The translations under genes were made by a program, and so were the position numbers. Positions 1-9,432 of a DNA stretch of 10,222 nucleotides are shown here, in pieces. Source of the DNA: a virus (lineage: Duplodnaviria; Heunggongvirae; Uroviricota; Caudoviricetes); IMG/VR virus record IMGVR_UViG_3300032007_004072, positions 1 to 10,222 of that record; one strand, 5' to 3'. Below the pieces are notes generated by a model. The model was given only the letters and a program-made list of their open reading frames with translations. It searched no databases and was not told the origin of the DNA. How positions within the stretch are numbered: the stretch's first letter is position 1; each line of letters starts with the position of its first letter.

Positions 1-810
1 AATGGTAATAGCGGGCTAACACCTGTATATAATGTAGGTAATGATGGTGATGACTTTTTTGGTCATGGTAGTGGATGGATCGTATTTTTCCTTTTCTTCC
101 TTATGGCATGGGGTGGTTTTGGTAATGGTGGCTATGGCCCTTGGGGTAATGGCAATAATCAGGCTCTTGCAAATTATGCAACACAGGCTGACATCAATAA
201 TGGCTTCCAATATCAAAACCTAAATGCCAAACTTGGTGATATTGGCAATGATATTAACACACTCGGTTATAATCAATTACAAGGTTTAAACACAATTAAT
301 ACTACTATTATGGGTGGTATGGCTAATATCAATAATAGCATGTTGCAGAATACAAATGCTACTAATATGGCAATTATGCAAAATGCAAATAATTTAGCTA
401 TGGGTATTGCAGAACAGACTAATGCACTAAACATGAACATGGTACAGACTGGTAATGCAATTACTAATGGTATGGCAAATCTTGGCTATGTAACTCAGAA
501 TCAGATTTGTGGTGTAAATAATAATATCGAAGCTGTTAAATATCAGTTAGCTACTGAAGCATGTGCTACAAGAGCAGAGTCTGATGCAAATACTCAGAAA
601 ATTCTTGACAGATTAACTACTATGCAGATGAATGATAAAGATAATCAGATTTATGCTCTTCAGTCAGATCTTCAAGCAGCAAGAAATCAGATTGATAATG
701 CTGCACAGACACAGGCTTTAGTTAGTGCATTAAAACCTTATCCTGTTCCTGCATACACTGTAGGTTCTCCTTACGCTTCTGCTAATGGTTGTGGTTGTAC
801 GTTGTCCTAA
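1..810 (+). CDS. 5'-truncated Asn/Gly/Met-rich phage protein with an N-terminal hydrophobic segment, 11-aa repeats and a Cys-containing tail (conserved hypothetical of gut Firmicutes phages/prophages)
   Basis: Frame 1 is open from base 1 (NGNSGLTPVYNVGNDGDDFFGHGSGWIVFFLFFLMAWGGFG...), so the true start lies upstream of the window and Met103 is internal. WIVFFLFFLMAW is a likely TM helix. ATQADINNGF, the C-terminal LKPYPVPAY...SPY and GCGC match a family I recognise from clostridial prophages. Confidence 0.85.
   Translation, partial: NGNSGLTPVYNVGNDGDDFFGHGSGWIVFFLFFLMAWGGFGNGGYGPWGNGNNQALANYATQADINNGFQYQNLNAKLGDIGNDINTLGYNQLQGLNTINTTIMGGMANINNSMLQNTNATNMAIMQNANNLAMGIAEQTNALNMNMVQTGNAITNGMANLGYVTQNQICGVNNNIEAVKYQLATEACATRAESDANTQKILDRLTTMQMNDKDNQIYALQSDLQAARNQIDNAAQTQALVSALKPYPVPAYTVGSPYASANGCGCTLS
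223..486 (+). repeat. Eight imperfect in-frame 33-nt (11-aa, hendecad) repeats
   Basis: NAKLGDIGNDI / NTLGYNQLQGL / NTINTTIMGGM / ANINNSMLQNT / NATNMAIMQNA / NNLAMGIAEQT / NALNMNMVQTG / NAITNGMANLG. Asn is at position 1 in 7 of 8 units, with hydrophobics mostly at positions 3, 7 and 8. Confidence 0.75.
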
Positions 811-832
811 TAGCAGATTTTAATATAGATTT

Positions 833-865
833 GGGGAAGATTTAATTCTTCCCCTTTATATTTTT
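833..865 (+). terminator. Probable intrinsic terminator/attenuating hairpin after gene 1
   Basis: GGGGAAGA (833-840), 6-nt loop, TCTTCCCC (847-854): a perfect 8-bp stem followed by TTTATATTTTT. Confidence 0.7.
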
Positions 866-867
866 GT

Positions 868-875
868 AAGGAGGT
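868..875 (+). promoter_or_regulatory. Ribosome-binding site for the 885 gene
   Basis: AAGGAGGT, 9 nt upstream of ATG 885. Confidence 0.9.
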
Positions 876-884
876 AATAAAGTA

Positions 885-1325
885 ATGTTAGAAACATATA
901 CTATAAGTGATTTAGGTGTTTCTCTAAACACTGGAGATAGTGTTGTATTTAATACAAATAATGTAGATTCTTGTTGTAAAATAACTCATGTAGCTGGAAC
1001 ACCAGTAGTAAGCATAACAAGACCAGGATATTATGTAGTAGAATTTAATGCTACTGGTTATAATACTGGTGCAGCATCTACTGTTGATTCAAGTGATGGC
1101 ACATTCTCCTTTCAATTGTATAATAATGGCATTGCTATACCTAATGCCCAAGCAAGAGCAACTTCTATTGCGGATACAGCAATTGCAAATATAAGTTTTC
1201 AAACTATAGTACAGGTTAAACCTTCTTGTCCTATGGTAAATAATAATGCGTCATTAGAAGTTAAATTTTTGGGGCAAGCAGGTACATTGTTAGCAGGTAC
1301 GTTAACAATATTTAGGGTAAGTTAA
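885..1325 (+). CDS. 146-aa beta-rich protein, BclA C-terminal/C1q-TNF-like fold (putative)
   Basis: Strong SD. The pattern ITRPGYYVVEFNATG...FQLYNNGIAIPNAQA...NISFQTIVQV resembles BclA-C-like jelly-roll domains and is typically found directly after the gene-1 family. Confidence 0.7.
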   Translation: MLETYTISDLGVSLNTGDSVVFNTNNVDSCCKITHVAGTPVVSITRPGYYVVEFNATGYNTGAASTVDSSDGTFSFQLYNNGIAIPNAQARATSIADTAIANISFQTIVQVKPSCPMVNNNASLEVKFLGQAGTLLAGTLTIFRVS

Positions 1326-1327
1326 TC

Positions 1328-1774
1328 ATGGAAGAAAAGGAATATTGGAAAGCAATTGAGGGTAATCCAACTTTGCAGAAGAAGTTTTACGATGCAGTAA
1401 TGAAAAGCATAGGGGAAATGAGATATGTTAATCAAGATGCATACGTAAAAGCAATGTTAACAGTACATGAAGCAATATTTGGAAAGCATTTTAGTGAAAA
1501 TTTATCAAAATACGCTGTTGCAGAGATGGATAATGTAGACGGAACAAAAGGTGAGCATTGGGATTTAGCTCAAACAACTCAATTATTAAATTCTCAAAAC
1601 TTAAAGTATAATAAGTTTGATTGGTACTATTTACTTAATATGTTACATTCAGATTTCAGTAAAATATTAGGTGAAGATACTAAAACATATTTAAATATGG
1701 CTAAAGCTTATATTGATGACCCAGATGCAAAAGATACGAAAGTATACTGTATTTGGAAGTCAAGATACATGTGA
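1328..1774 (+). CDS. 148-aa conserved phage hypothetical protein (helical)
   Basis: Starts 2 nt after the previous stop. Motifs HW..., FDWYYLLNMLHSDF and AKAYIDDPDA are typical of a gut-phage family of unknown function. Confidence 0.8.
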   Translation: MEEKEYWKAIEGNPTLQKKFYDAVMKSIGEMRYVNQDAYVKAMLTVHEAIFGKHFSENLSKYAVAEMDNVDGTKGEHWDLAQTTQLLNSQNLKYNKFDWYYLLNMLHSDFSKILGEDTKTYLNMAKAYIDDPDAKDTKVYCIWKSRYM

Positions 1775-1906: not shown

Positions 1907-2809
1907 GTGTTTATTTCAGGACAAGGAAATAATATTTTAGATTTATTCACTGCCATTCATGATACTCTTGTTGCTGTTGGTTGGACAGTTTACCCCATGA
2001 CTACCACATCTGGCGGTATAACAGATGGGGCAATATTCATGGGTACTGGTGATGGTACAGATAATATATACATATATTTGAGTTGTCATGAGGTTAGTGA
2101 TAGACTTATTTTGGATAGTAGCGTTGGCTATGACCAGCATTTAGGTGTATTTGAACAACCAGGAAGTTTACAACAATGGATGAAGCATGATGGTATTACA
2201 ATGACAGATACACCAGAGTTTGTTATATCTAATAATGAGCGTTATTTTTATTGGATTTTTGTAGATACTTATAGAATAATTGTAGTTGCACGTATGTCTA
2301 TTGTATATGAGTCTATGTATTTAGGATTTTTGAATCCGATAGCAGATGAAAGACAGTATCCTTATCCAATGTATGTATGCGGTAATACACATCAAAGAGG
2401 TCAAGCTTGGCCTAATAATACAAATGGTTCTTTTGTTTTCCCTCAGAATAATCAAGGGTGGCTTAGAAGAGCAGATGGTGTTTGGAGAGCATTTAATGCT
2501 AGTAAGCCAAACCCAAGTCCATCTACTGTAGGTACAGTATTTCCATATAATTCACACAACGAAAGATTAATTCCTAACTATAAAGAAACAGATGCTATAA
2601 ATCAAGATAACTTTTTGTTAATTCCAATAATAATGCAGACTAATGACCCAGTAGATATGAACGGTTTACTTAGAGGTTGTTATTGGGTATCTGGTACTCG
2701 TGATATTGACGCAGAAAGAGTTTTGGTATATGGCAATGAGCAGTATATAGTATTCGACACAAAACAAGATAGGGGGCCGAATACTTATTTCTGTATAAAG
2801 ATGGCGTGA
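1907..2809 (+). CDS. Putative virion structural/tail protein (300 aa), similar to D3112/MP22/YuA-type virion structural proteins
   Basis: Start corrected to GTG 1907 using the SD. Motifs LVAVGWT, GTGDGTDNIYI, YWIFVDTYRIIVVARMSIVYESMYLGFL...QYPYPMYVCG, LRRADGVW and GLLRGCYWV...YIVFDT...YFCIK match that family as I recall it. Confidence 0.75.
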   Translation: MFISGQGNNILDLFTAIHDTLVAVGWTVYPMTTTSGGITDGAIFMGTGDGTDNIYIYLSCHEVSDRLILDSSVGYDQHLGVFEQPGSLQQWMKHDGITMTDTPEFVISNNERYFYWIFVDTYRIIVVARMSIVYESMYLGFLNPIADERQYPYPMYVCGNTHQRGQAWPNNTNGSFVFPQNNQGWLRRADGVWRAFNASKPNPSPSTVGTVFPYNSHNERLIPNYKETDAINQDNFLLIPIIMQTNDPVDMNGLLRGCYWVSGTRDIDAERVLVYGNEQYIVFDTKQDRGPNTYFCIKMA

Positions 2810-2815
2810 TGAACC

Positions 2816-4603
2816 ATGTTTAGTTATAGATATGATATTAAAAGTTTTAATGATGTAGTCCCATCTTTTTTAGATTTTTGTGCTTTTTTTGATTATAATC
2901 AGGATAATATTATTGTTAATTATGGTTATGATAATTGGCATGGAGCTACAGTAGCTATACCAATTTCTGATTATAAAGTTGAAGCTGAATTTACAGATAG
3001 TATTTATTTACTTGGAGATCCAACTTTCTATTCTTTATTTTTTATTTGTTATAAAAATTATTCTAGATATGCTAATAAATGGTATTTAGGTAATACATTA
3101 AAAAGGATATATCCAAATAGCAATATATTGGTAGAAAATCAATTAAGTACTTCTGAATACTTAACAATGTTAAGTGGATTATCTGATAGTAAGGTTGTTT
3201 ATGTTTTTGGTAATAATATAACAAATCGTTATGGTAGTATTTCTGGGTTGTTTGATTATTTAGATACTATGAACGATGTATGTTTGAGTAATAACTTAGA
3301 CTTATATTTAGTATATGCACCTACAGAAGAACATAGTGATGAATTATATGACGCTATTGAAAGTTATGCTTATCAAGCTAAACCAAGAAAAATATTAAAT
3401 TTTTATAGTGAGTTAGCTGATACTAGACTAGATATGCAAGTTGCTCTTGATTATAATACCTATCAATTAACAGATTATAGGTCAATATATGGAGTTCAAA
3501 CTTATGTAGGCATACCAACATACTCAAGAAATATTGCAGCATTATTTACTAGATTTATATTATCTAATGTTTTTCATAAAGATAGAGAAGAATATTATGT
3601 TTCTTTAATGTATAGTAACAATCCAAAAACTTGGTATTCACAGTTATTTACTACTTATGATGAGTATATGATTGAGGAGTTTAATTATGACCAATATATT
3701 CATGGTGGTTGGAGTATACAAAGTAAATATGGTTCTAATCCACCAAATATATTTAAAAATACTGGAGAGTTAGTTTCTGTTGGTGTACATACTTCTTATG
3801 ATCCTTTTTTGTGGATGTGTGAGCAAGGTGGGATAACCTGTAAAAAAGAGGAAGATGAACAAATAGAAGATCTAGACTTAATGGGATTTTATGCATTTTT
3901 AAACGGAAGTCCAAATAAAAAAGTCAAGCCTCCTGTATTTCCTACTACTGGTTGTCCTTGGTTTACTATTTCAAGTAAAAATATTGCTGATTATGGTATT
4001 GCAAATTGTCCTGCTAAATTATATATTACTAGGGTAGGAAGTTCATTTATTTTAACTATAAGAGTTATTGACGCTAATGGACAAAAACCAGATTTATGGC
4101 AATCAATTACTTTTGGAGAATTTGTTGGTAGAATAGATGGCTATAATATAGATCAATTTTACTGTGCAGGAGGTAATCAAGCTTTATCTCCAGATTCATG
4201 GACATATTTTGCTACTTCTCATATAATTGGATTGCAGATGGATTTAGACATGAAAAATTCTTCTATTGTAAATTCTAATATATTACATCCTTCAAAGTTT
4301 GAGAAAACTAATTTATCTAATTTTAGAATTATGAATGGCGAAGGTACTTGGGAAGATATATATTCTGCCACACAGGGATACAAGGAATATCAATATTTGG
4401 ATGGTAATGGTAATGCCACAATTTATACTTGGGGAGTGCCATTAACTAAACCAAACTTTAATATTAGCAATAATCTAAATACTGCATATCCATATTTAGA
4501 TTGGCAACATAAGATAGACTCTTACACCATAAATAAGTATGATTTAAAGAAGAACGATATGTCTGGGAAGATAGATCCATTGACTGTATATTTAGCAAAG
4601 TAG
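2816..4603 (+). CDS. Putative virion structural/tail protein (595 aa), paralog of the 1907 gene, with an SGNH-like insert and an apparently missing C-terminal subdomain
   Basis: SD-like GTGAT overlaps the upstream TGA. TSYDPFLWMCEQGG parallels VGYDQHLGVFEQPG of the 1907 protein, and WQSITFGEF parallels YESMYLGFL. It ends at DPLTVYLAK, where the paralogs continue for another 45-100 aa. Confidence 0.7.
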   Translation: MFSYRYDIKSFNDVVPSFLDFCAFFDYNQDNIIVNYGYDNWHGATVAIPISDYKVEAEFTDSIYLLGDPTFYSLFFICYKNYSRYANKWYLGNTLKRIYPNSNILVENQLSTSEYLTMLSGLSDSKVVYVFGNNITNRYGSISGLFDYLDTMNDVCLSNNLDLYLVYAPTEEHSDELYDAIESYAYQAKPRKILNFYSELADTRLDMQVALDYNTYQLTDYRSIYGVQTYVGIPTYSRNIAALFTRFILSNVFHKDREEYYVSLMYSNNPKTWYSQLFTTYDEYMIEEFNYDQYIHGGWSIQSKYGSNPPNIFKNTGELVSVGVHTSYDPFLWMCEQGGITCKKEEDEQIEDLDLMGFYAFLNGSPNKKVKPPVFPTTGCPWFTISSKNIADYGIANCPAKLYITRVGSSFILTIRVIDANGQKPDLWQSITFGEFVGRIDGYNIDQFYCAGGNQALSPDSWTYFATSHIIGLQMDLDMKNSSIVNSNILHPSKFEKTNLSNFRIMNGEGTWEDIYSATQGYKEYQYLDGNGNATIYTWGVPLTKPNFNISNNLNTAYPYLDWQHKIDSYTINKYDLKKNDMSGKIDPLTVYLAK

Positions 4604-4614
4604 GTGATATAGCG

Positions 4615-6558
4615 ATGTCTGAATTTTTAAAGAAATTTATTAAGCCTGCTCAGGATTTAATTGATAATCCTCCTCCTATACCACCTAATAACAATGATTT
4701 TTTAGATCTATGTATAAGAAGTGTTTCTGATGGTCAATTTAATACTTACAGTGATGCTGTGTCCGAGTTTGTTTACTCTTTTAATTCTTATGCAGATAAA
4801 AATGAATTTTTATTAAAAGAGTGCGGAATTGTTCTCGATAATGAAGATAGCGGTAGCATTATTGGTAAGGATGCTAGAGGTGACTATGTAATAGGTAAGC
4901 ATTTTTGTCCAATTAAAGAAGTTCCAGAAGATTTACCTCCTAAACATGCTAATATTAATGGGATACTTATAGATTTTCGTGATTTATCTAACATAGAATC
5001 AGATAGTGACAAAACATCTTTATTTTTTAGGCATGCATATTATAATTGGATACCGTTTATTATAGATAAGATATATGAATCTTTTGGTTTAACTGTTAAT
5101 GATAAAATAGAGGTTAATTCAATACCACCAGTTGATTTTGTTTCAGCCCATACTAATATTGATTACTCAGTGCCTTTTTACGATTGTTTATTTTATCCTC
5201 GTGGTGATGCTACTGATGATGATGACGATGTTATTGATGAATCGTTCAATTATTGGGCAATAATTACTGGCACTGAATTTATAAATAATATGGATATTGT
5301 TGATGTTGGTAGAGTAGTGTTAGTTTCTGGTGGTGAGGAGAGAACTTATTATTTGGATACTGAACTTGCTCGTGTGTTTGTGGATGTTGTATTTGAGAGA
5401 TTAATTCCTTGGGCAGAGCTATTACCTGCATTATTTATGGATGGGTTGGCAGATGTTTTTGCTGGTGGTGATTTTAGACCTATAAATCATGGAACTGACT
5501 ATATTGAATTATTAACTAATAATATTGGTGTGTTATATGATGTGCTTGTTGAAAGAGGGCCACTAACTGATGATGGGGCATATATTGTTGCAGATACTTT
5601 TTTAAGGTGGTTAAAGGAAAGATTTCAGCCTAAAGTTTATACGCCTTTTCTCAATAAACTTATATATGGTGTAAATTTATATGATAAATTTTATGCTGAT
5701 GTAACAATGATAATAAATTTAGCTATACAATATGCTACAAAATTAACGGGAATAAAAACTTCATATGTACAATTTATACAAGAATATGTTAATAAATTAG
5801 ATATTGATGACATAGATAGCTCATTATATATATTATCTAAATTAGACTTTACTAATGAAGATGGTGGAGCATATGGAGGAAAAGATAGTAAATTTGTTGA
5901 CTATGCTATAAAAAGGCAAGACAGATTTCGTATATTAAATATATTCAGTTATCTTAATCAGGCAGATACTCTTTATTATAGTTTTAGCTACTACGCTAAA
6001 TATGAAAATAATGAATATAAGGTTAGGGATTTAACTATAAAATTTACAGAAATAACATCAAGCACAATAAACGCATACTATAAAAAATCAATAATATCAA
6101 GGCTCATTAGAGGGATATTTAAACCTGTGTTACAATGTTTGGATTACTATTTAAATTTGAGATTTGATTCATTTAGTTTTTGTAAAGTTATTCATATAGA
6201 TTTTGATGATGACCCAACTCCTATACGTCCTTGTAGTTATCAAGTTGGTTTTGATGAGAGTGGAAAGGTAAACAGCATGTTAATTACATTTTATACTCAT
6301 GCTTATATTCCTATAGATGATAGAGATACAATGCCTGCAATGGGTTATTATACAGGTAATTATCTTTTATATATATTTTGTATATTTATTATTTTATCTA
6401 AATTAAATAATGCTCAAGCATTTTATAGGCATCCTATAATAGTAGCAATAGCTATAACATTGGTTGGTTATGATGAGTTGGGCGAAACAGATATTAAAGA
6501 TACAGCTGTTAATGGAGATACAGAGCAATATGCGGTAGGTGGTATTATTGGGGACTGA
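4615..6558 (+). CDS. 647-aa protein with two tandem degenerate gluzincin/flagellinolysin-like folds (no HExxH)
   Basis: SD AGGTGAT at 4602-4608. FLDLCIRSVS..FNTYSDAVSEFV..FLLKECGIVLDNEDSGSIIGKDA, YLDTELARVFVD, DGLAD and AYIVADTFLRWL follow the order of motifs I recall from Selenomonas-type flagellin/surface metallopeptidase domains (CGIILDNxDTGAITGxDAGG, YLDRTxAHExTH, EGxAE, AYAxGYxFLRYL). Confidence 0.65.
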   Translation: MSEFLKKFIKPAQDLIDNPPPIPPNNNDFLDLCIRSVSDGQFNTYSDAVSEFVYSFNSYADKNEFLLKECGIVLDNEDSGSIIGKDARGDYVIGKHFCPIKEVPEDLPPKHANINGILIDFRDLSNIESDSDKTSLFFRHAYYNWIPFIIDKIYESFGLTVNDKIEVNSIPPVDFVSAHTNIDYSVPFYDCLFYPRGDATDDDDDVIDESFNYWAIITGTEFINNMDIVDVGRVVLVSGGEERTYYLDTELARVFVDVVFERLIPWAELLPALFMDGLADVFAGGDFRPINHGTDYIELLTNNIGVLYDVLVERGPLTDDGAYIVADTFLRWLKERFQPKVYTPFLNKLIYGVNLYDKFYADVTMIINLAIQYATKLTGIKTSYVQFIQEYVNKLDIDDIDSSLYILSKLDFTNEDGGAYGGKDSKFVDYAIKRQDRFRILNIFSYLNQADTLYYSFSYYAKYENNEYKVRDLTIKFTEITSSTINAYYKKSIISRLIRGIFKPVLQCLDYYLNLRFDSFSFCKVIHIDFDDDPTPIRPCSYQVGFDESGKVNSMLITFYTHAYIPIDDRDTMPAMGYYTGNYLLYIFCIFIILSKLNNAQAFYRHPIIVAIAITLVGYDELGETDIKDTAVNGDTEQYAVGGIIGD

Positions 6559-6610
6559 GGCACAAGCATTATCAGCTGGCTATCCCTTAATGAGATACGG
6601 CCTTGCTGAA
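4615..6610 (+). repeat. Internal protein-level tandem duplication, period about 338 aa (copy 1 about 4615-5625, copy 2 about 5700-6610)
   Basis: NEDSGSIIGKDAR (4840) and NEDGGAYGGKDSK (5854) are 1014 nt apart. FLDLCIRSVS matches IINLAIQYAT. The YL...zinc-helix positions (5371 and 6382) are 1011 nt apart. Confidence 0.65.
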
Positions 6611-7849
6611 TATAATGCTGTTATAGATTATCAACCAAAAACAGAAAATGCAAAAAGTGTTCCAGAAACATATAGATTTATAGCTTCTAATATAAAGGGT
6701 TGCTATGTTTCTTGGTCAAGGTCTTTACCTTCTGGAGAAGTAAGAATAGGTAGTGATATTTATTTATCTATTCCTAACGGTTGGGATGAAAGACTTTGTT
6801 ATTATCCTTGGTATACAGGACATAGATATTGGCAATATAATCAGTGGGATTATCCAGAACAAAATTATGAAAATTCAAGTACTACTCCAAAAGGAGCAAG
6901 AAACAATGAAAGTGTATACAGATATTATCATGGAAATGAAACAAATTTAGATGTTTATGTAAATAGAAATAGATTTACAGATAAGTTACTTATTTGGTAT
7001 AAGCAAGTTGAGAGAAAAGTGGCTTTAATTGATGATTTGTCACCTACGTTAGAAAACCCTACTAAGCCAACAAAAAATACAACTATTATTAGAATGAAGG
7101 TATTTGTACAAAATTCTAATGAGACTGTAAATTTTTATATTAAGCCTCTTAGTAACTGCATAACATATGTATATGATTTTGGCGATGGTAGTAAGAATGT
7201 ATATACTCAAGAAGATTATAGTACAGTTATAAGTCATAAGTATTCTTCACCTGGTTATTATGTTGTAGATGTAGACATTGTTTCAGGTATTAACTCGGCT
7301 GTTCATGTTAGGTTGCTTGATAGGGTTATTGTTAATTCAGATTTTAATACGTCTAGTGTACTTAAGACATTGTACGTTAATTGTAGTGGTGAATTTGAAA
7401 CTACAGAAGTATCTTTTGAGTGTGGTGGTACATTAGAGTATGTATATATATCAGCTGTACAAGATCATTATTCTATAAATTTTTGGGATGGTACTCGTAT
7501 TGATGATTTATATATAGTACCTAAAGATACAGAAGAAGACCAATTTCAGGGAAACGTAGTATTATCCAGTGGCTATGGTAATTATTATAATATGGTTAGT
7601 AATTTACATTTAAGTAGTAAGGTCAAGCAGTTAGACGTTTCATATTTTAATTATTTTAATACTGGGACAGTTAATGTTTATTCTTATTCGCTTGACCCGT
7701 TGAGAGTAATTTGTTATCCAGTATATGATAGTGTTAATGATATATATGATTTTTCATTATTAGCTTTTGATATGTTGTTATTTATAAGAGCTTCAATTAT
7801 AACTGAGGTTCAAGAATTAAATTATAATTTACCTATTTCAGTGTTTTAA
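6548..7849 (+). CDS. Putative tail-associated protein (433 aa from TTG 6548, or the frameshifted continuation of the 4615 gene): tail-domain C-terminal fragment, PKD-like domain, degenerate LRR-like region
   Basis: The frame is open from 6539. AGGTGGT (6537-6543) could be an SD for TTG 6548. NIKGCYVSW...GEVRIGSDIYLSIP matches the C-terminal part of the virion family. YDFGDG...SHKYSSPGYYVV is a PKD signature. The start position is uncertain. Confidence 0.65.
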   Translation: MGTEAQALSAGYPLMRYGLAEYNAVIDYQPKTENAKSVPETYRFIASNIKGCYVSWSRSLPSGEVRIGSDIYLSIPNGWDERLCYYPWYTGHRYWQYNQWDYPEQNYENSSTTPKGARNNESVYRYYHGNETNLDVYVNRNRFTDKLLIWYKQVERKVALIDDLSPTLENPTKPTKNTTIIRMKVFVQNSNETVNFYIKPLSNCITYVYDFGDGSKNVYTQEDYSTVISHKYSSPGYYVVDVDIVSGINSAVHVRLLDRVIVNSDFNTSSVLKTLYVNCSGEFETTEVSFECGGTLEYVYISAVQDHYSINFWDGTRIDDLYIVPKDTEEDQFQGNVVLSSGYGNYYNMVSNLHLSSKVKQLDVSYFNYFNTGTVNVYSYSLDPLRVICYPVYDSVNDIYDFSLLAFDMLLFIRASIITEVQELNYNLPISVF

Positions 7850-7863
7850 GGTGGTGATAATAA

Positions 7864-9432
7864 TTGTTTTCACATTATAAAGTTACTAGTACTTCGGAAA
7901 TGAAAGAAAAAATAATAAATTTTGTTTGTATAGTGTGTGGACTTGAATTATCACCATCAAGTAATATACAAGTACTTACTAAAGATAATAATCATAAATT
8001 ATGGTTTATGCAGGAATCTTATGGTATATCTGTATGGATTACTGATTTTGATGACGTTAACGTAGATGGTTCTACAGTAGAAACATCTCCATATTATGCT
8101 ACCTCTACTGTAGGTCTTGCTGGAAGATATGTAACAGATGAGCAAGTAACAGTTATAGATGAAGAAGCAACAGCAGAAGCAAAGGCAGAAGCTATGGAAG
8201 AATTAGAGGAGTGGAAAAAGGAACAAGGTGGAGAAGATCCAGAATCAACTTTTAAGGAAGTAAGGAAGAAAGTAATATATGAACAAGAATTAGCGAAGAA
8301 GTTAAAAGAGATAGACGAAATAAAGAAAACAAAAAAAGAGTGGCATAGATTATATGATACTAATGTATTTCATATAGGTGGAGTACTTAGATTTTCTGAT
8401 GTAACTCAAGATGCTACTTTAGGAAGATATAAATATTTGGATTGTCACTATAATGATGGTGTATTTGCTTTTTTCTTATATTCACATGGAGATAGAAAGA
8501 ATACTAACACCTTAGTGATTGGAGAATATACACCTACGCATAAAAATAATACAGATAGAACATTTATTTTATCTAATACTTTTCGTATTGTTAGCGAAAA
8601 TAAAAATGCTGGCTATGATGATTCATTTGTTTTTGAAGGTGCAAATGGTATTGAAACTTTTCCCCTACATAGTGAGGATAGAATAATACATTATAATAAT
8701 GAATTGTTTAGATTAGTTCAGTATGATATAGATGCTGAGCCAGAACCAAAAAAATATTCTGTAAATGGGGTAAAAGTTGGATTTAGACAAAATATAGCTC
8801 CAGTATGGATACAAAAGTGGAATTTAGCGAAAGAAAAAAGTGATTCAGAATCTAAATATAATGGTAATATAAAGGTATTAGAATGGCAGTACAGAGAATT
8901 ACATTGCACATATGAATGTGAAGAGTCTACGGTGGGCGTAAATTATTTTCCTTTATTAGATACACAAAAAAGGTCTTATAGACAATATGACCCATATATT
9001 CCAGGGCCAGACCCTTACGATGATTTTACAGGATTTAGACGTAGCGGAACAGGAGGAAATTCTGTAAATACTAATAATAATATTAGTGAATGTATGCCTC
9101 TTATATTTTATGTATTAAGAGATCCAGATGATTTAGATAGTTGGTCTTGTGTTGGTATGACTGATATTGTTGGGTATATAAATATGTATAACATGTCAAG
9201 CGGAAGAGTTTTGCAATCAAGATTTAGAGATAATTATCAAAAACATGCTTGTTATGATTTATATAAAAGACGTTGTAAATATACTCCATGGAGTCCAGAT
9301 GAAAATGAGCCGAATCCTGGACATAAATATAATATGTCTTGGGGTTTTGGTGGATATCCAGGAATACATTTTAAATTAGATGATGAGACTACAGAAAATG
9401 CATTAGCAATAGGGAGGGGTAGAGTTGTATAA
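7864..9432 (+). CDS. Putative virion structural/tail protein (522 aa), third paralog, with a charged helical insertion
   Basis: TTG start with SD GGTGAT (7853-7858). The N-terminus MFSHYKVTSTSEMKEKIINFV parallels the other paralogs. The C-terminal PLIFYVLRD...WSCVGMTDIVGYINM...SSG...YPGIHFKL fits the family C-terminus. Confidence 0.65.
   Translation: MFSHYKVTSTSEMKEKIINFVCIVCGLELSPSSNIQVLTKDNNHKLWFMQESYGISVWITDFDDVNVDGSTVETSPYYATSTVGLAGRYVTDEQVTVIDEEATAEAKAEAMEELEEWKKEQGGEDPESTFKEVRKKVIYEQELAKKLKEIDEIKKTKKEWHRLYDTNVFHIGGVLRFSDVTQDATLGRYKYLDCHYNDGVFAFFLYSHGDRKNTNTLVIGEYTPTHKNNTDRTFILSNTFRIVSENKNAGYDDSFVFEGANGIETFPLHSEDRIIHYNNELFRLVQYDIDAEPEPKKYSVNGVKVGFRQNIAPVWIQKWNLAKEKSDSESKYNGNIKVLEWQYRELHCTYECEESTVGVNYFPLLDTQKRSYRQYDPYIPGPDPYDDFTGFRRSGTGGNSVNTNNNISECMPLIFYVLRDPDDLDSWSCVGMTDIVGYINMYNMSSGRVLQSRFRDNYQKHACYDLYKRRCKYTPWSPDENEPNPGHKYNMSWGFGGYPGIHFKLDDETTENALAIGRGRVV
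9413..9417 (+). promoter_or_regulatory. Ribosome-binding site for the TTG 9425 gene (inside the previous CDS)
   Basis: GGAGG, 7 nt upstream of TTG 9425. Confidence 0.75.

Follow-up and report, generated by a model that had tools for sequence, protein, structure and literature searches.

In this study, a 647-residue protein of a bovine gut phage (ORF A) was found to carry two tandem domains of apparent flagellinolysin-like gluzincin ancestry, both predicted to be catalytically dead, and the second of them (copy 2) is split over two genes, its last helix being encoded at the start of the next gene (ORF B). This split points to a structural docking role. We infer both the docking and the virion location, and hold with moderate confidence that copy 2 clips onto the ORF B helix and tethers the first domain (copy 1) to a side fibre like that of phage JBD30. 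The window (the whole stretch of 10,222 nucleotides that was analysed) is the start of a 148-kb virus contig with 30% GC, and sequence of the phage is present in bovine gut sequencing runs. Here W denotes this phage, L numbers are loci or genomes of relatives, P numbers are homologous proteins, and X numbers are sequencing runs. ORF A sits in a run of structural genes, with a very large lysozyme/NlpC-bearing gene on one side and BR0599 and tail-tip genes on the other. The genes of the cluster that matter here, with the domains of ORF B, are:

1907-2809, plus strand: 300-aa gp47-like gene (PHROG 687; match to the 318-aa JBD30 baseplate chain 8rk3_c at E 1e-7, and at 4e-10 with a profile)
2816-4603, plus strand: upstream 595-aa gene with the N-terminal three quarters of a split tail domain at aa 247-585 (profile E 6e-83)
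4615-6558, plus strand: ORF A, 647 aa, two tandem flagellinolysin-like gluzincin domains, predicted pseudo-peptidases (HMM and profile matches; full-length orthologues P0002 at 59% and P0003 at 52%)
6548-7849, plus strand: ORF B, 433 aa, with the orphan peptidase helix, the C-terminal tail-domain piece and a PKD domain
6674-6886, plus strand: C-terminal piece of the split tail domain (profile columns 363-432), in ORF B (E 4e-16)
7115-7279, plus strand: PKD domain of ORF B (Pfam PF00801, E 1.7e-7)

A first-pass annotation, made from the letters alone, had recognized two flagellinolysin-related gluzincin domains in ORF A, and the searches bore this out. The NCBIfam flagellinolysin model NF033876 was the sole model to match ORF A; it did so twice and weakly (E 1.2e-6), and its 28.2 bits lie below the curated cut-off of 205 bits. 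A Pfam search of ORF A gave no match, neither to HemolysinCabind (RTX repeats) nor to flagellin N- or C-terminal domains, and the flanks are tail genes. Among the 1.84 billion representatives searched, 104 relatives of ORF A were found. A family HMM built from 75 intact homologous domains matched copy 1 over nearly its whole length (E 7e-33), copy 2 at E 7e-6 and the orthologous copy 2 of P0005 at E 1e-15. Profile-profile comparison of the copy-1 family with copy 2 gave a probability of 97% (E 1.6e-11) over 250 columns. The two copies are:

4615-5634, plus strand: copy 1 (aa 1-340), helical then catalytic subdomain, complete fold, predicted dead site (HMM match as above; model pLDDT 82)
5641-6555, plus strand: copy 2 (aa 343-647), predicted dead, without the family's last helix, proposed docking clip (HMM, models, selection)

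The structural models of the two copies show the same run of secondary-structure elements. The top structural neighbours of both are M9 collagenases and M1 aminopeptidases of the gluzincin clan with middling Z; unlike these enzymes, to which identity is about 10%, ORF A lacks the zinc ligands. The copy 1 model matched the M9 collagenases 7wss (Z 7.4, rmsd 4.5, 181 aligned residues) and 4ar8 (Z 7.2), and the best Z for copy 2 was 6.7. The top VIA rows are nearly all gluzincins, with Z of only 6-7.4 and with models that came from alignments including intact homologues. In the Atlas, the copy-2 model was nearest to flagellin/Peptidase_M9 clusters (TM 0.43-0.46). Foldseek searches of the PDB and BFVD returned nothing at E <= 0.001, a PDB profile search found no solved relative of the domain, scans of IMG/VR found no relatives, and ESM Atlas searches by feature came back empty. 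Of the agreement that had been expected between profiles, structures and the two halves of the protein, the sequence-profile match and the alignment of the copies, made by profile comparison in place of a superposition of the models, were obtained and the Foldseek match was not; the sequence profiles are stronger support for gluzincin kinship than the structure models. By its defining features, ORF A is neither a flagellinolysin nor an active gluzincin, yet it is descended from a flagellinolysin-like domain.

All four catalytic residues are kept in 93 of the 102 scored homologous domains, and ORF A keeps none. The corresponding positions are:

5368-5385, plus strand: copy 1 HExxH position, ARVFVD, with His replaced by Arg253, Glu by Val254 and His by Asp257 (family HMM/PSSM alignment)
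5440-5454, plus strand: copy 1 third-ligand motif, DGLAD, with Glu replaced by Asp276
6370-6384, plus strand: copy 2 HExxH position, YIFCI
6442-6456, plus strand: copy 2 third-ligand position, VAIAI (Val610)

The two motifs named earlier for copy 1 fall exactly on the HExxH and third-ligand positions. For copy 2, VAIAI was likewise placed correctly, whereas CIFIIL is off by about one helical turn and the true register is YIFCI; His and Glu are absent from both registers. The claim that the zinc ligands and the catalytic Glu are gone is right in that neither copy has an HExxH or the third Glu, but copy 1, which has lost the first His and the catalytic Glu, retains Asp at two ligand positions (D257 and D276). 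Hydrophobic residues occupy the copy 2 site, which shows hardly any variation. Judging from these residues, both copies in this genome are predicted to be catalytically dead. In copy 1 of P0003 (52% identity), HExxH and the Glu are intact; in copy 1 of L008, the third Glu is present and HExxH is hidden by gaps. In a quick tree, the dead copies 1 of W and P0002 form one clade within a group that includes P0003 and L008, which suggests that the copy 1 site was lost once, in the common ancestor of W and P0002.

The family domain ends in a conserved helix. Copy 1 has this helix at about aa 322-337, and copy 2 stops before it; both copies had been described as full length in a single frame, which fails for copy 2 because its last helix lies in the next gene, in the +1 frame:

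6537-6558, plus strand: gene junction, with an SD-like AGGTGG at 6537-6542, the ORF B TTG start at 6548 and the ORF A stop at 6556-6558 (11-nt overlap)
6569-6610, plus strand: orphan last helix of copy 2 (ORF B aa 8-21), +1 frame (PSSM, dN/dS, P0034 alignment)

The orphan helix begins 11 nt past the ORF A stop. It ranked 2 of 35,327 genome ORF windows with a PSSM of the family's last helix, outranking copy 1's own helix, and adding it extends the copy 2 HMM alignment to the domain end. It also aligns with the last helix of P0034, a single 740-aa ORF in the same slot of L101 that joins an active-type peptidase, the last helix, the tail piece and a homologue of the PKD region. A complex prediction for copy 2 with ORF B residues 1-36 scored 0.00, with the fold of the partner uncertain, a result that by the rule of the tool counts neither for nor against binding. 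The copy 2 split is common to five genomes (W, L001, L004, L008 and L007), and the junction is identical in the first four; homologues at 52-87% identity end at the same codon as ORF A. L007, which has copy 2 only (37% identity), is split at the same point, with TAATG coupling and a different relative frame. A sequencing error at the G run (break at 6550-6558) was rejected, as it is bridged without an indel by contigs of three runs (X4, X5 and X7) that are not flagged as a possible source of this DNA.

A programmed +1 frameshift at the GGGG run before the stop would yield a fused protein of about 1,080 aa in which copy 2 is complete and docking in trans is not needed. Removal of one base does fuse the frames, and the junction letters, comprising the G run, the stop codon and the upstream SD-like motif, are conserved in four genomes. 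However, this conservation is explained by dual coding, and the stop is preceded by GAC (ACT in +1), a codon that fails the prfB-type re-pairing test. In the prfB +1 frameshift, the SD motif lies about 3 nt upstream of the P-site codon; here the SD-like motif is 7-10 nt from the candidate P-site codons. L007 reaches the same split with an ATG in its other frame, and its helix Tyr is residue 12 from that ATG, as it is from TTG 6548, so that the two starts are codon-for-codon equivalent. The AGGTG motif is also found, at the same distance, before TTG starts at 7864, 9425 and 16191 in the cluster, and no conserved RNA structure was found at the junction (z -1.85, -0.51 and +0.70). Given the equivalent ATG, the shared TTG and motif usage and the RNA result, a separate, coupled start of ORF B is more likely than a programmed frameshift, which we regard as the least probable of the readings considered. 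GTG 6539 was discarded as the ORF B start, because it is followed by a stop in L001, L004 and L008.

The 300-aa gene upstream is homologous to JBD30 chain 8rk3_c, which places the gene cluster as a side-fibre module. Going by its length, we take this 318-aa baseplate chain to be tail fibre gp47. The arrangement agrees with a JBD30-type module in that the gp47-like gene is present, between the tape-measure-like and BR0599 genes. The side fibres of JBD30 are gp47/gp48 heterodimers that bind pili (PMC11445458). The JBD30 lateral tail fibre (PDB 8RK3; PMC11445458) shares with this phage a homologous neighbouring gene (E 4e-10) and a similar cluster position; in this phage, by contrast, the module is expanded and fragmented and carries hydrolase-fold and PKD domains as decorations, and the link through the split tail domain is weak. 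The split domain was defined with a 451-column profile, the seed of which left out the upstream 595-aa gene and ORF B: columns 4-348 lie in the upstream gene and columns 363-432 in ORF B. The whole domain is found in an 817-aa paralogue and in L014-L017, where the C-terminal piece is fused to the upstream gene. Its hhalign match to gp47/gp48 is weak (55%, E 1e-4), and comparing it with the gp47-like family by shallow profiles gave no match.

Several further features of the module were observed. Window positions 2990-3560 are a variable insert in the 595-aa gene, with dN/dS of about 0.8 against L004 and 0.16 against L001, and in the relatives P0059 and P0113, GDSL/lipase-like domains precede the same tail domain. 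The part of ORF B that bears the PKD domain (window 7000-7849) is 93% identical to L001 and 36-38% to L004, unlike the N-terminal part, which is 82-87% identical throughout; ORF B is a mosaic in this respect, and its C-terminal part may be a swapped, host-facing module. In L012 (890-915), only a TAG stop and one codon lie between the upstream tail gene and the homologue of ORF B, which share a reading frame; this could be simple fission or readthrough. Window positions 1-1774 encode an Asn/Gln-rich protein of about 275 aa, a BclA_C-like protein and DUF7841, in an order conserved in most relatives; these three genes, absent from L010 and L014-L017, lie between the tape-measure-like gene and the fibre module. 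Fusion of the upstream gene with ORF A by a -1 frameshift was considered and rejected as not conserved, the frame across the junction being open only in W and L001 and the offset differing in L004.

Selection was assessed with Nei-Gojobori estimates of dN/dS, leaving out the saturated L007 comparisons. Purifying selection acts on copy 2 from end to end (dN/dS 0.17-0.32), and the first 28 codons of ORF B, which include the orphan helix, show 0.07-0.10, with synonymous changes in the +1 frame; the flanking tail domains show 0.12-0.23. Copy 2 and the orphan helix are maintained by selection. When dead copies 1 are compared with each other, dN/dS is 0.27 for the helical subdomain and 0.79 for the catalytic half, where pN/pS is 0.86 (bootstrap 0.70-1.08) and indistinguishable from neutral. 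The catalytic half of copy 1 is relaxed or diversifying and not clearly under purifying selection. Selection for a non-catalytic role, as proposed at first for both copies, is supported for copy 2 and not clearly for the catalytic half of copy 1. The argument from a long open frame does not carry over to copy 1 either: its frame must stay open for copy 2, the dN/dS of its catalytic half is high and the protease is intact in a close relative, so that the open frame is no proof of selection on copy 1.

These data also bear on the view that both dead domains are selected host-recognition modules, binding a receptor or peptides or acting as decoys or inhibitors of host proteases, with docking incidental. 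The purifying selection over full-length copy 2 would fit such a role, as would the conservation of copy 1, in which 43-44 of 90 family-conserved columns are retained, compared with 46-55 in active sisters. The rapid change of copy 1 is similar to that of the variable decorations on fibre genes nearby (dN/dS about 0.8), dead copies also occur in non-phage homologues (about 7 of the 102 domains), and the locus is a side-fibre module of a kind that binds pili in JBD30 (PMC11445458). Against this, the copy 2 site is hydrophobic and near-invariant, unlike a host-range determinant, and the near-neutral pN/pS of the copy 1 catalytic half does not indicate a selected module. Evidence for a decoy, mimic or inhibitor role, which the annotation had offered as options, was not found, and the conserved orphan helix would be left unexplained. 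We consider this view unlikely, though the strongest of the alternatives.

The docking reading gains from comparison of the gene slot among relatives. Five states of the slot are seen: fused and active (L101), split-dead only (L007), active plus split-dead (L004), dead plus split-dead (W and L001), and deleted (L010); the pattern rests on about seven independent loci. The loci that lack ORF A (L010/L011 and L012) also lack the orphan helix, which supports the clip. The joint loss in L010 goes back to a single deletion, and the helix could have been removed as a by-product of it. L010 is nested in the W clade (support 99), and nine initial codons of a copy-1-like gene remain there, attached to ORF B, so the absence of ORF A is a deletion; that the cassette is dispensable in so close a relative speaks against the clip. 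The conservation of the whole of copy 2 could also reflect a second binding job beyond docking. On the number of captures, the quick tree requires two changes and has long branches, but is compatible with one origin. In L009, L019, L020 and L102, catalytically intact copies are fused to the N-terminus of a neighbouring tail paralogue, and L102 also carries a GDSL domain. Intact versions fused to tail proteins in several related phages are the best candidates for a virion-borne protease; their loci are:

L009:10001-13678; L019:8001-12305; L020:8001-10907; L101:10001-12223; L102:1953-5609; L004:2002-3930

The deletion in L010, together with the existence of ORF B without the helix, would also suit a reading of ORF A as a non-virion protein (for example, a released assembly chaperone shielding the ORF B helix) or as a slowly decaying relic, the helix being merely a leader of ORF B. 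However, selection is purifying on both copy 2 and the helix, the split state persists down to 37% identity (P0005), and the fused orthologue P0034 puts the domain on a tail protein. This reading is improbable.

Taken with the docking reading, the data suggest the following mechanism. The phage family would hang a flagellinolysin-like zinc protease, captured from secreted RTX proteins of Selenomonadales, on side-fibre subunits of the JBD30 type. In the W lineage, the protease-tail gene would have been cut inside the protease, just before the last helix, and copy 2 would have lost its active site. The two halves would be translated separately but coupled, through the TTG start that overlaps the stop, and copy 2 would fold around the N-terminal helix of ORF B, holding ORF A on the fibre as a non-covalent clip. 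ORF B in turn carries the final part of a tail domain that lies mostly in the upstream gene. Copy 1 would be the payload, presumably a working protease in relatives and dead since the common ancestor of W and P0002; now fast-evolving, it may be either a surface domain that binds peptides or a passenger on which selection has relaxed. Flagellinolysins are promiscuous and able to cut flagellins (PMC7643111); because they do so, a protease that clears or grips host surface proteins is a reasonable inference by analogy. More tentatively, and with rather less confidence than in the clip itself, we suggest that rumen phages arm their side fibres with a host-derived protease against the protein coat, pili or flagella of the host, and that in one lineage the dead copy became a split-domain connector for swapping, silencing or dropping payloads.

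The enzymes known from phage tails are mostly glycan or peptidoglycan hydrolases. In the literature searched, itself incomplete, nothing was found that describes an M9/flagellinolysin-like protease on a tail fibre, and the domain of ORF A had no match in 50,697 annotated phage records. A conserved split pseudoenzyme within enzyme-decorated tail fibres is unusual. The five slot states give an unusually full view of the passage from enzyme to pseudoenzyme and of a gene fission that leaves a protein-protein interface, and the system would offer a handle on phage contact with the surface of Selenomonas-like rumen bacteria.

In a GTDB scan, the 25 best hits were all from Selenomonadales/Selenomonadaceae, mostly secreted proteins with RTX repeats, and genomes carried up to eight matches each. 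A Selenomonas-type source in flagellins or surface peptidases had been proposed at the outset; the Selenomonadales part stands, and the source proteins appear to be of the secreted RTX kind, not flagellins. The subdomain order agrees with this: in flagellins the catalytic subdomain precedes the helical one, whereas in the Selenomonadales RTX proteins and the phage copies the helical subdomain comes first. Against the Selenomonadales RTX-associated domain, ORF A gave a full-length profile match with the helical subdomain first, copy 2 being complete only with the ORF B helix. Capture directly from a flagellin is disfavoured by the opposite order; the shared helical-first order indicates that the donor was probably an RTX-type secreted Selenomonadales protein. 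A host in the Selenomonadales (Negativicutes) is plausible from the ancestry of the domain alone.

Compared with flagellinolysins (NF033876; Eckhard et al. 2017, PMC5595980, and 2020, PMC7643111), ORF A shares by homology the M9-like gluzincin domain with its accessory helical subdomain, and display on a filament surface is an analogous use. Unlike them, it has no flagellin domains, a permuted order and no catalytic residues, is phage-encoded, and has copy 2 split over two genes. The RTX "calcium-binding proteins" of rumen Selenomonadaceae (e.g., MBQ9479517.1, P0006) are the closest cellular homologues, with the same subdomain order, sometimes in tandem and occasionally dead; ORF A differs in lacking RTX repeats and catalytic residues and in being attached to tail proteins. 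The zincins of phage polyvalent proteins (PMC5512222) are also phage-borne zincin domains near virion genes. The description given of them is of domains that are injected or process themselves and that fall into clades apart from other zincins (PMC5512222); by that description, the ORF A domain differs in its probable derivation from a host surface protease and in its place on a fibre module.

The circular permutation separates flagellin-type loci (L036, L037, L039, L046-L048 and L050) from those of the RTX type (L021-L035), and L036 and L039 have the catalytic-first order without a detected flagellin motif. A tandem such as ORF A contains one unit of each subdomain order. The dead versions among the non-phage homologues are P0014, P0035, P0036, P0042, P0068, P0099 and P0102, most with RTX-like motifs; P0014, for example, which has the same domain as L033 (Selenomonadaceae), carries an active and a dead copy in tandem.
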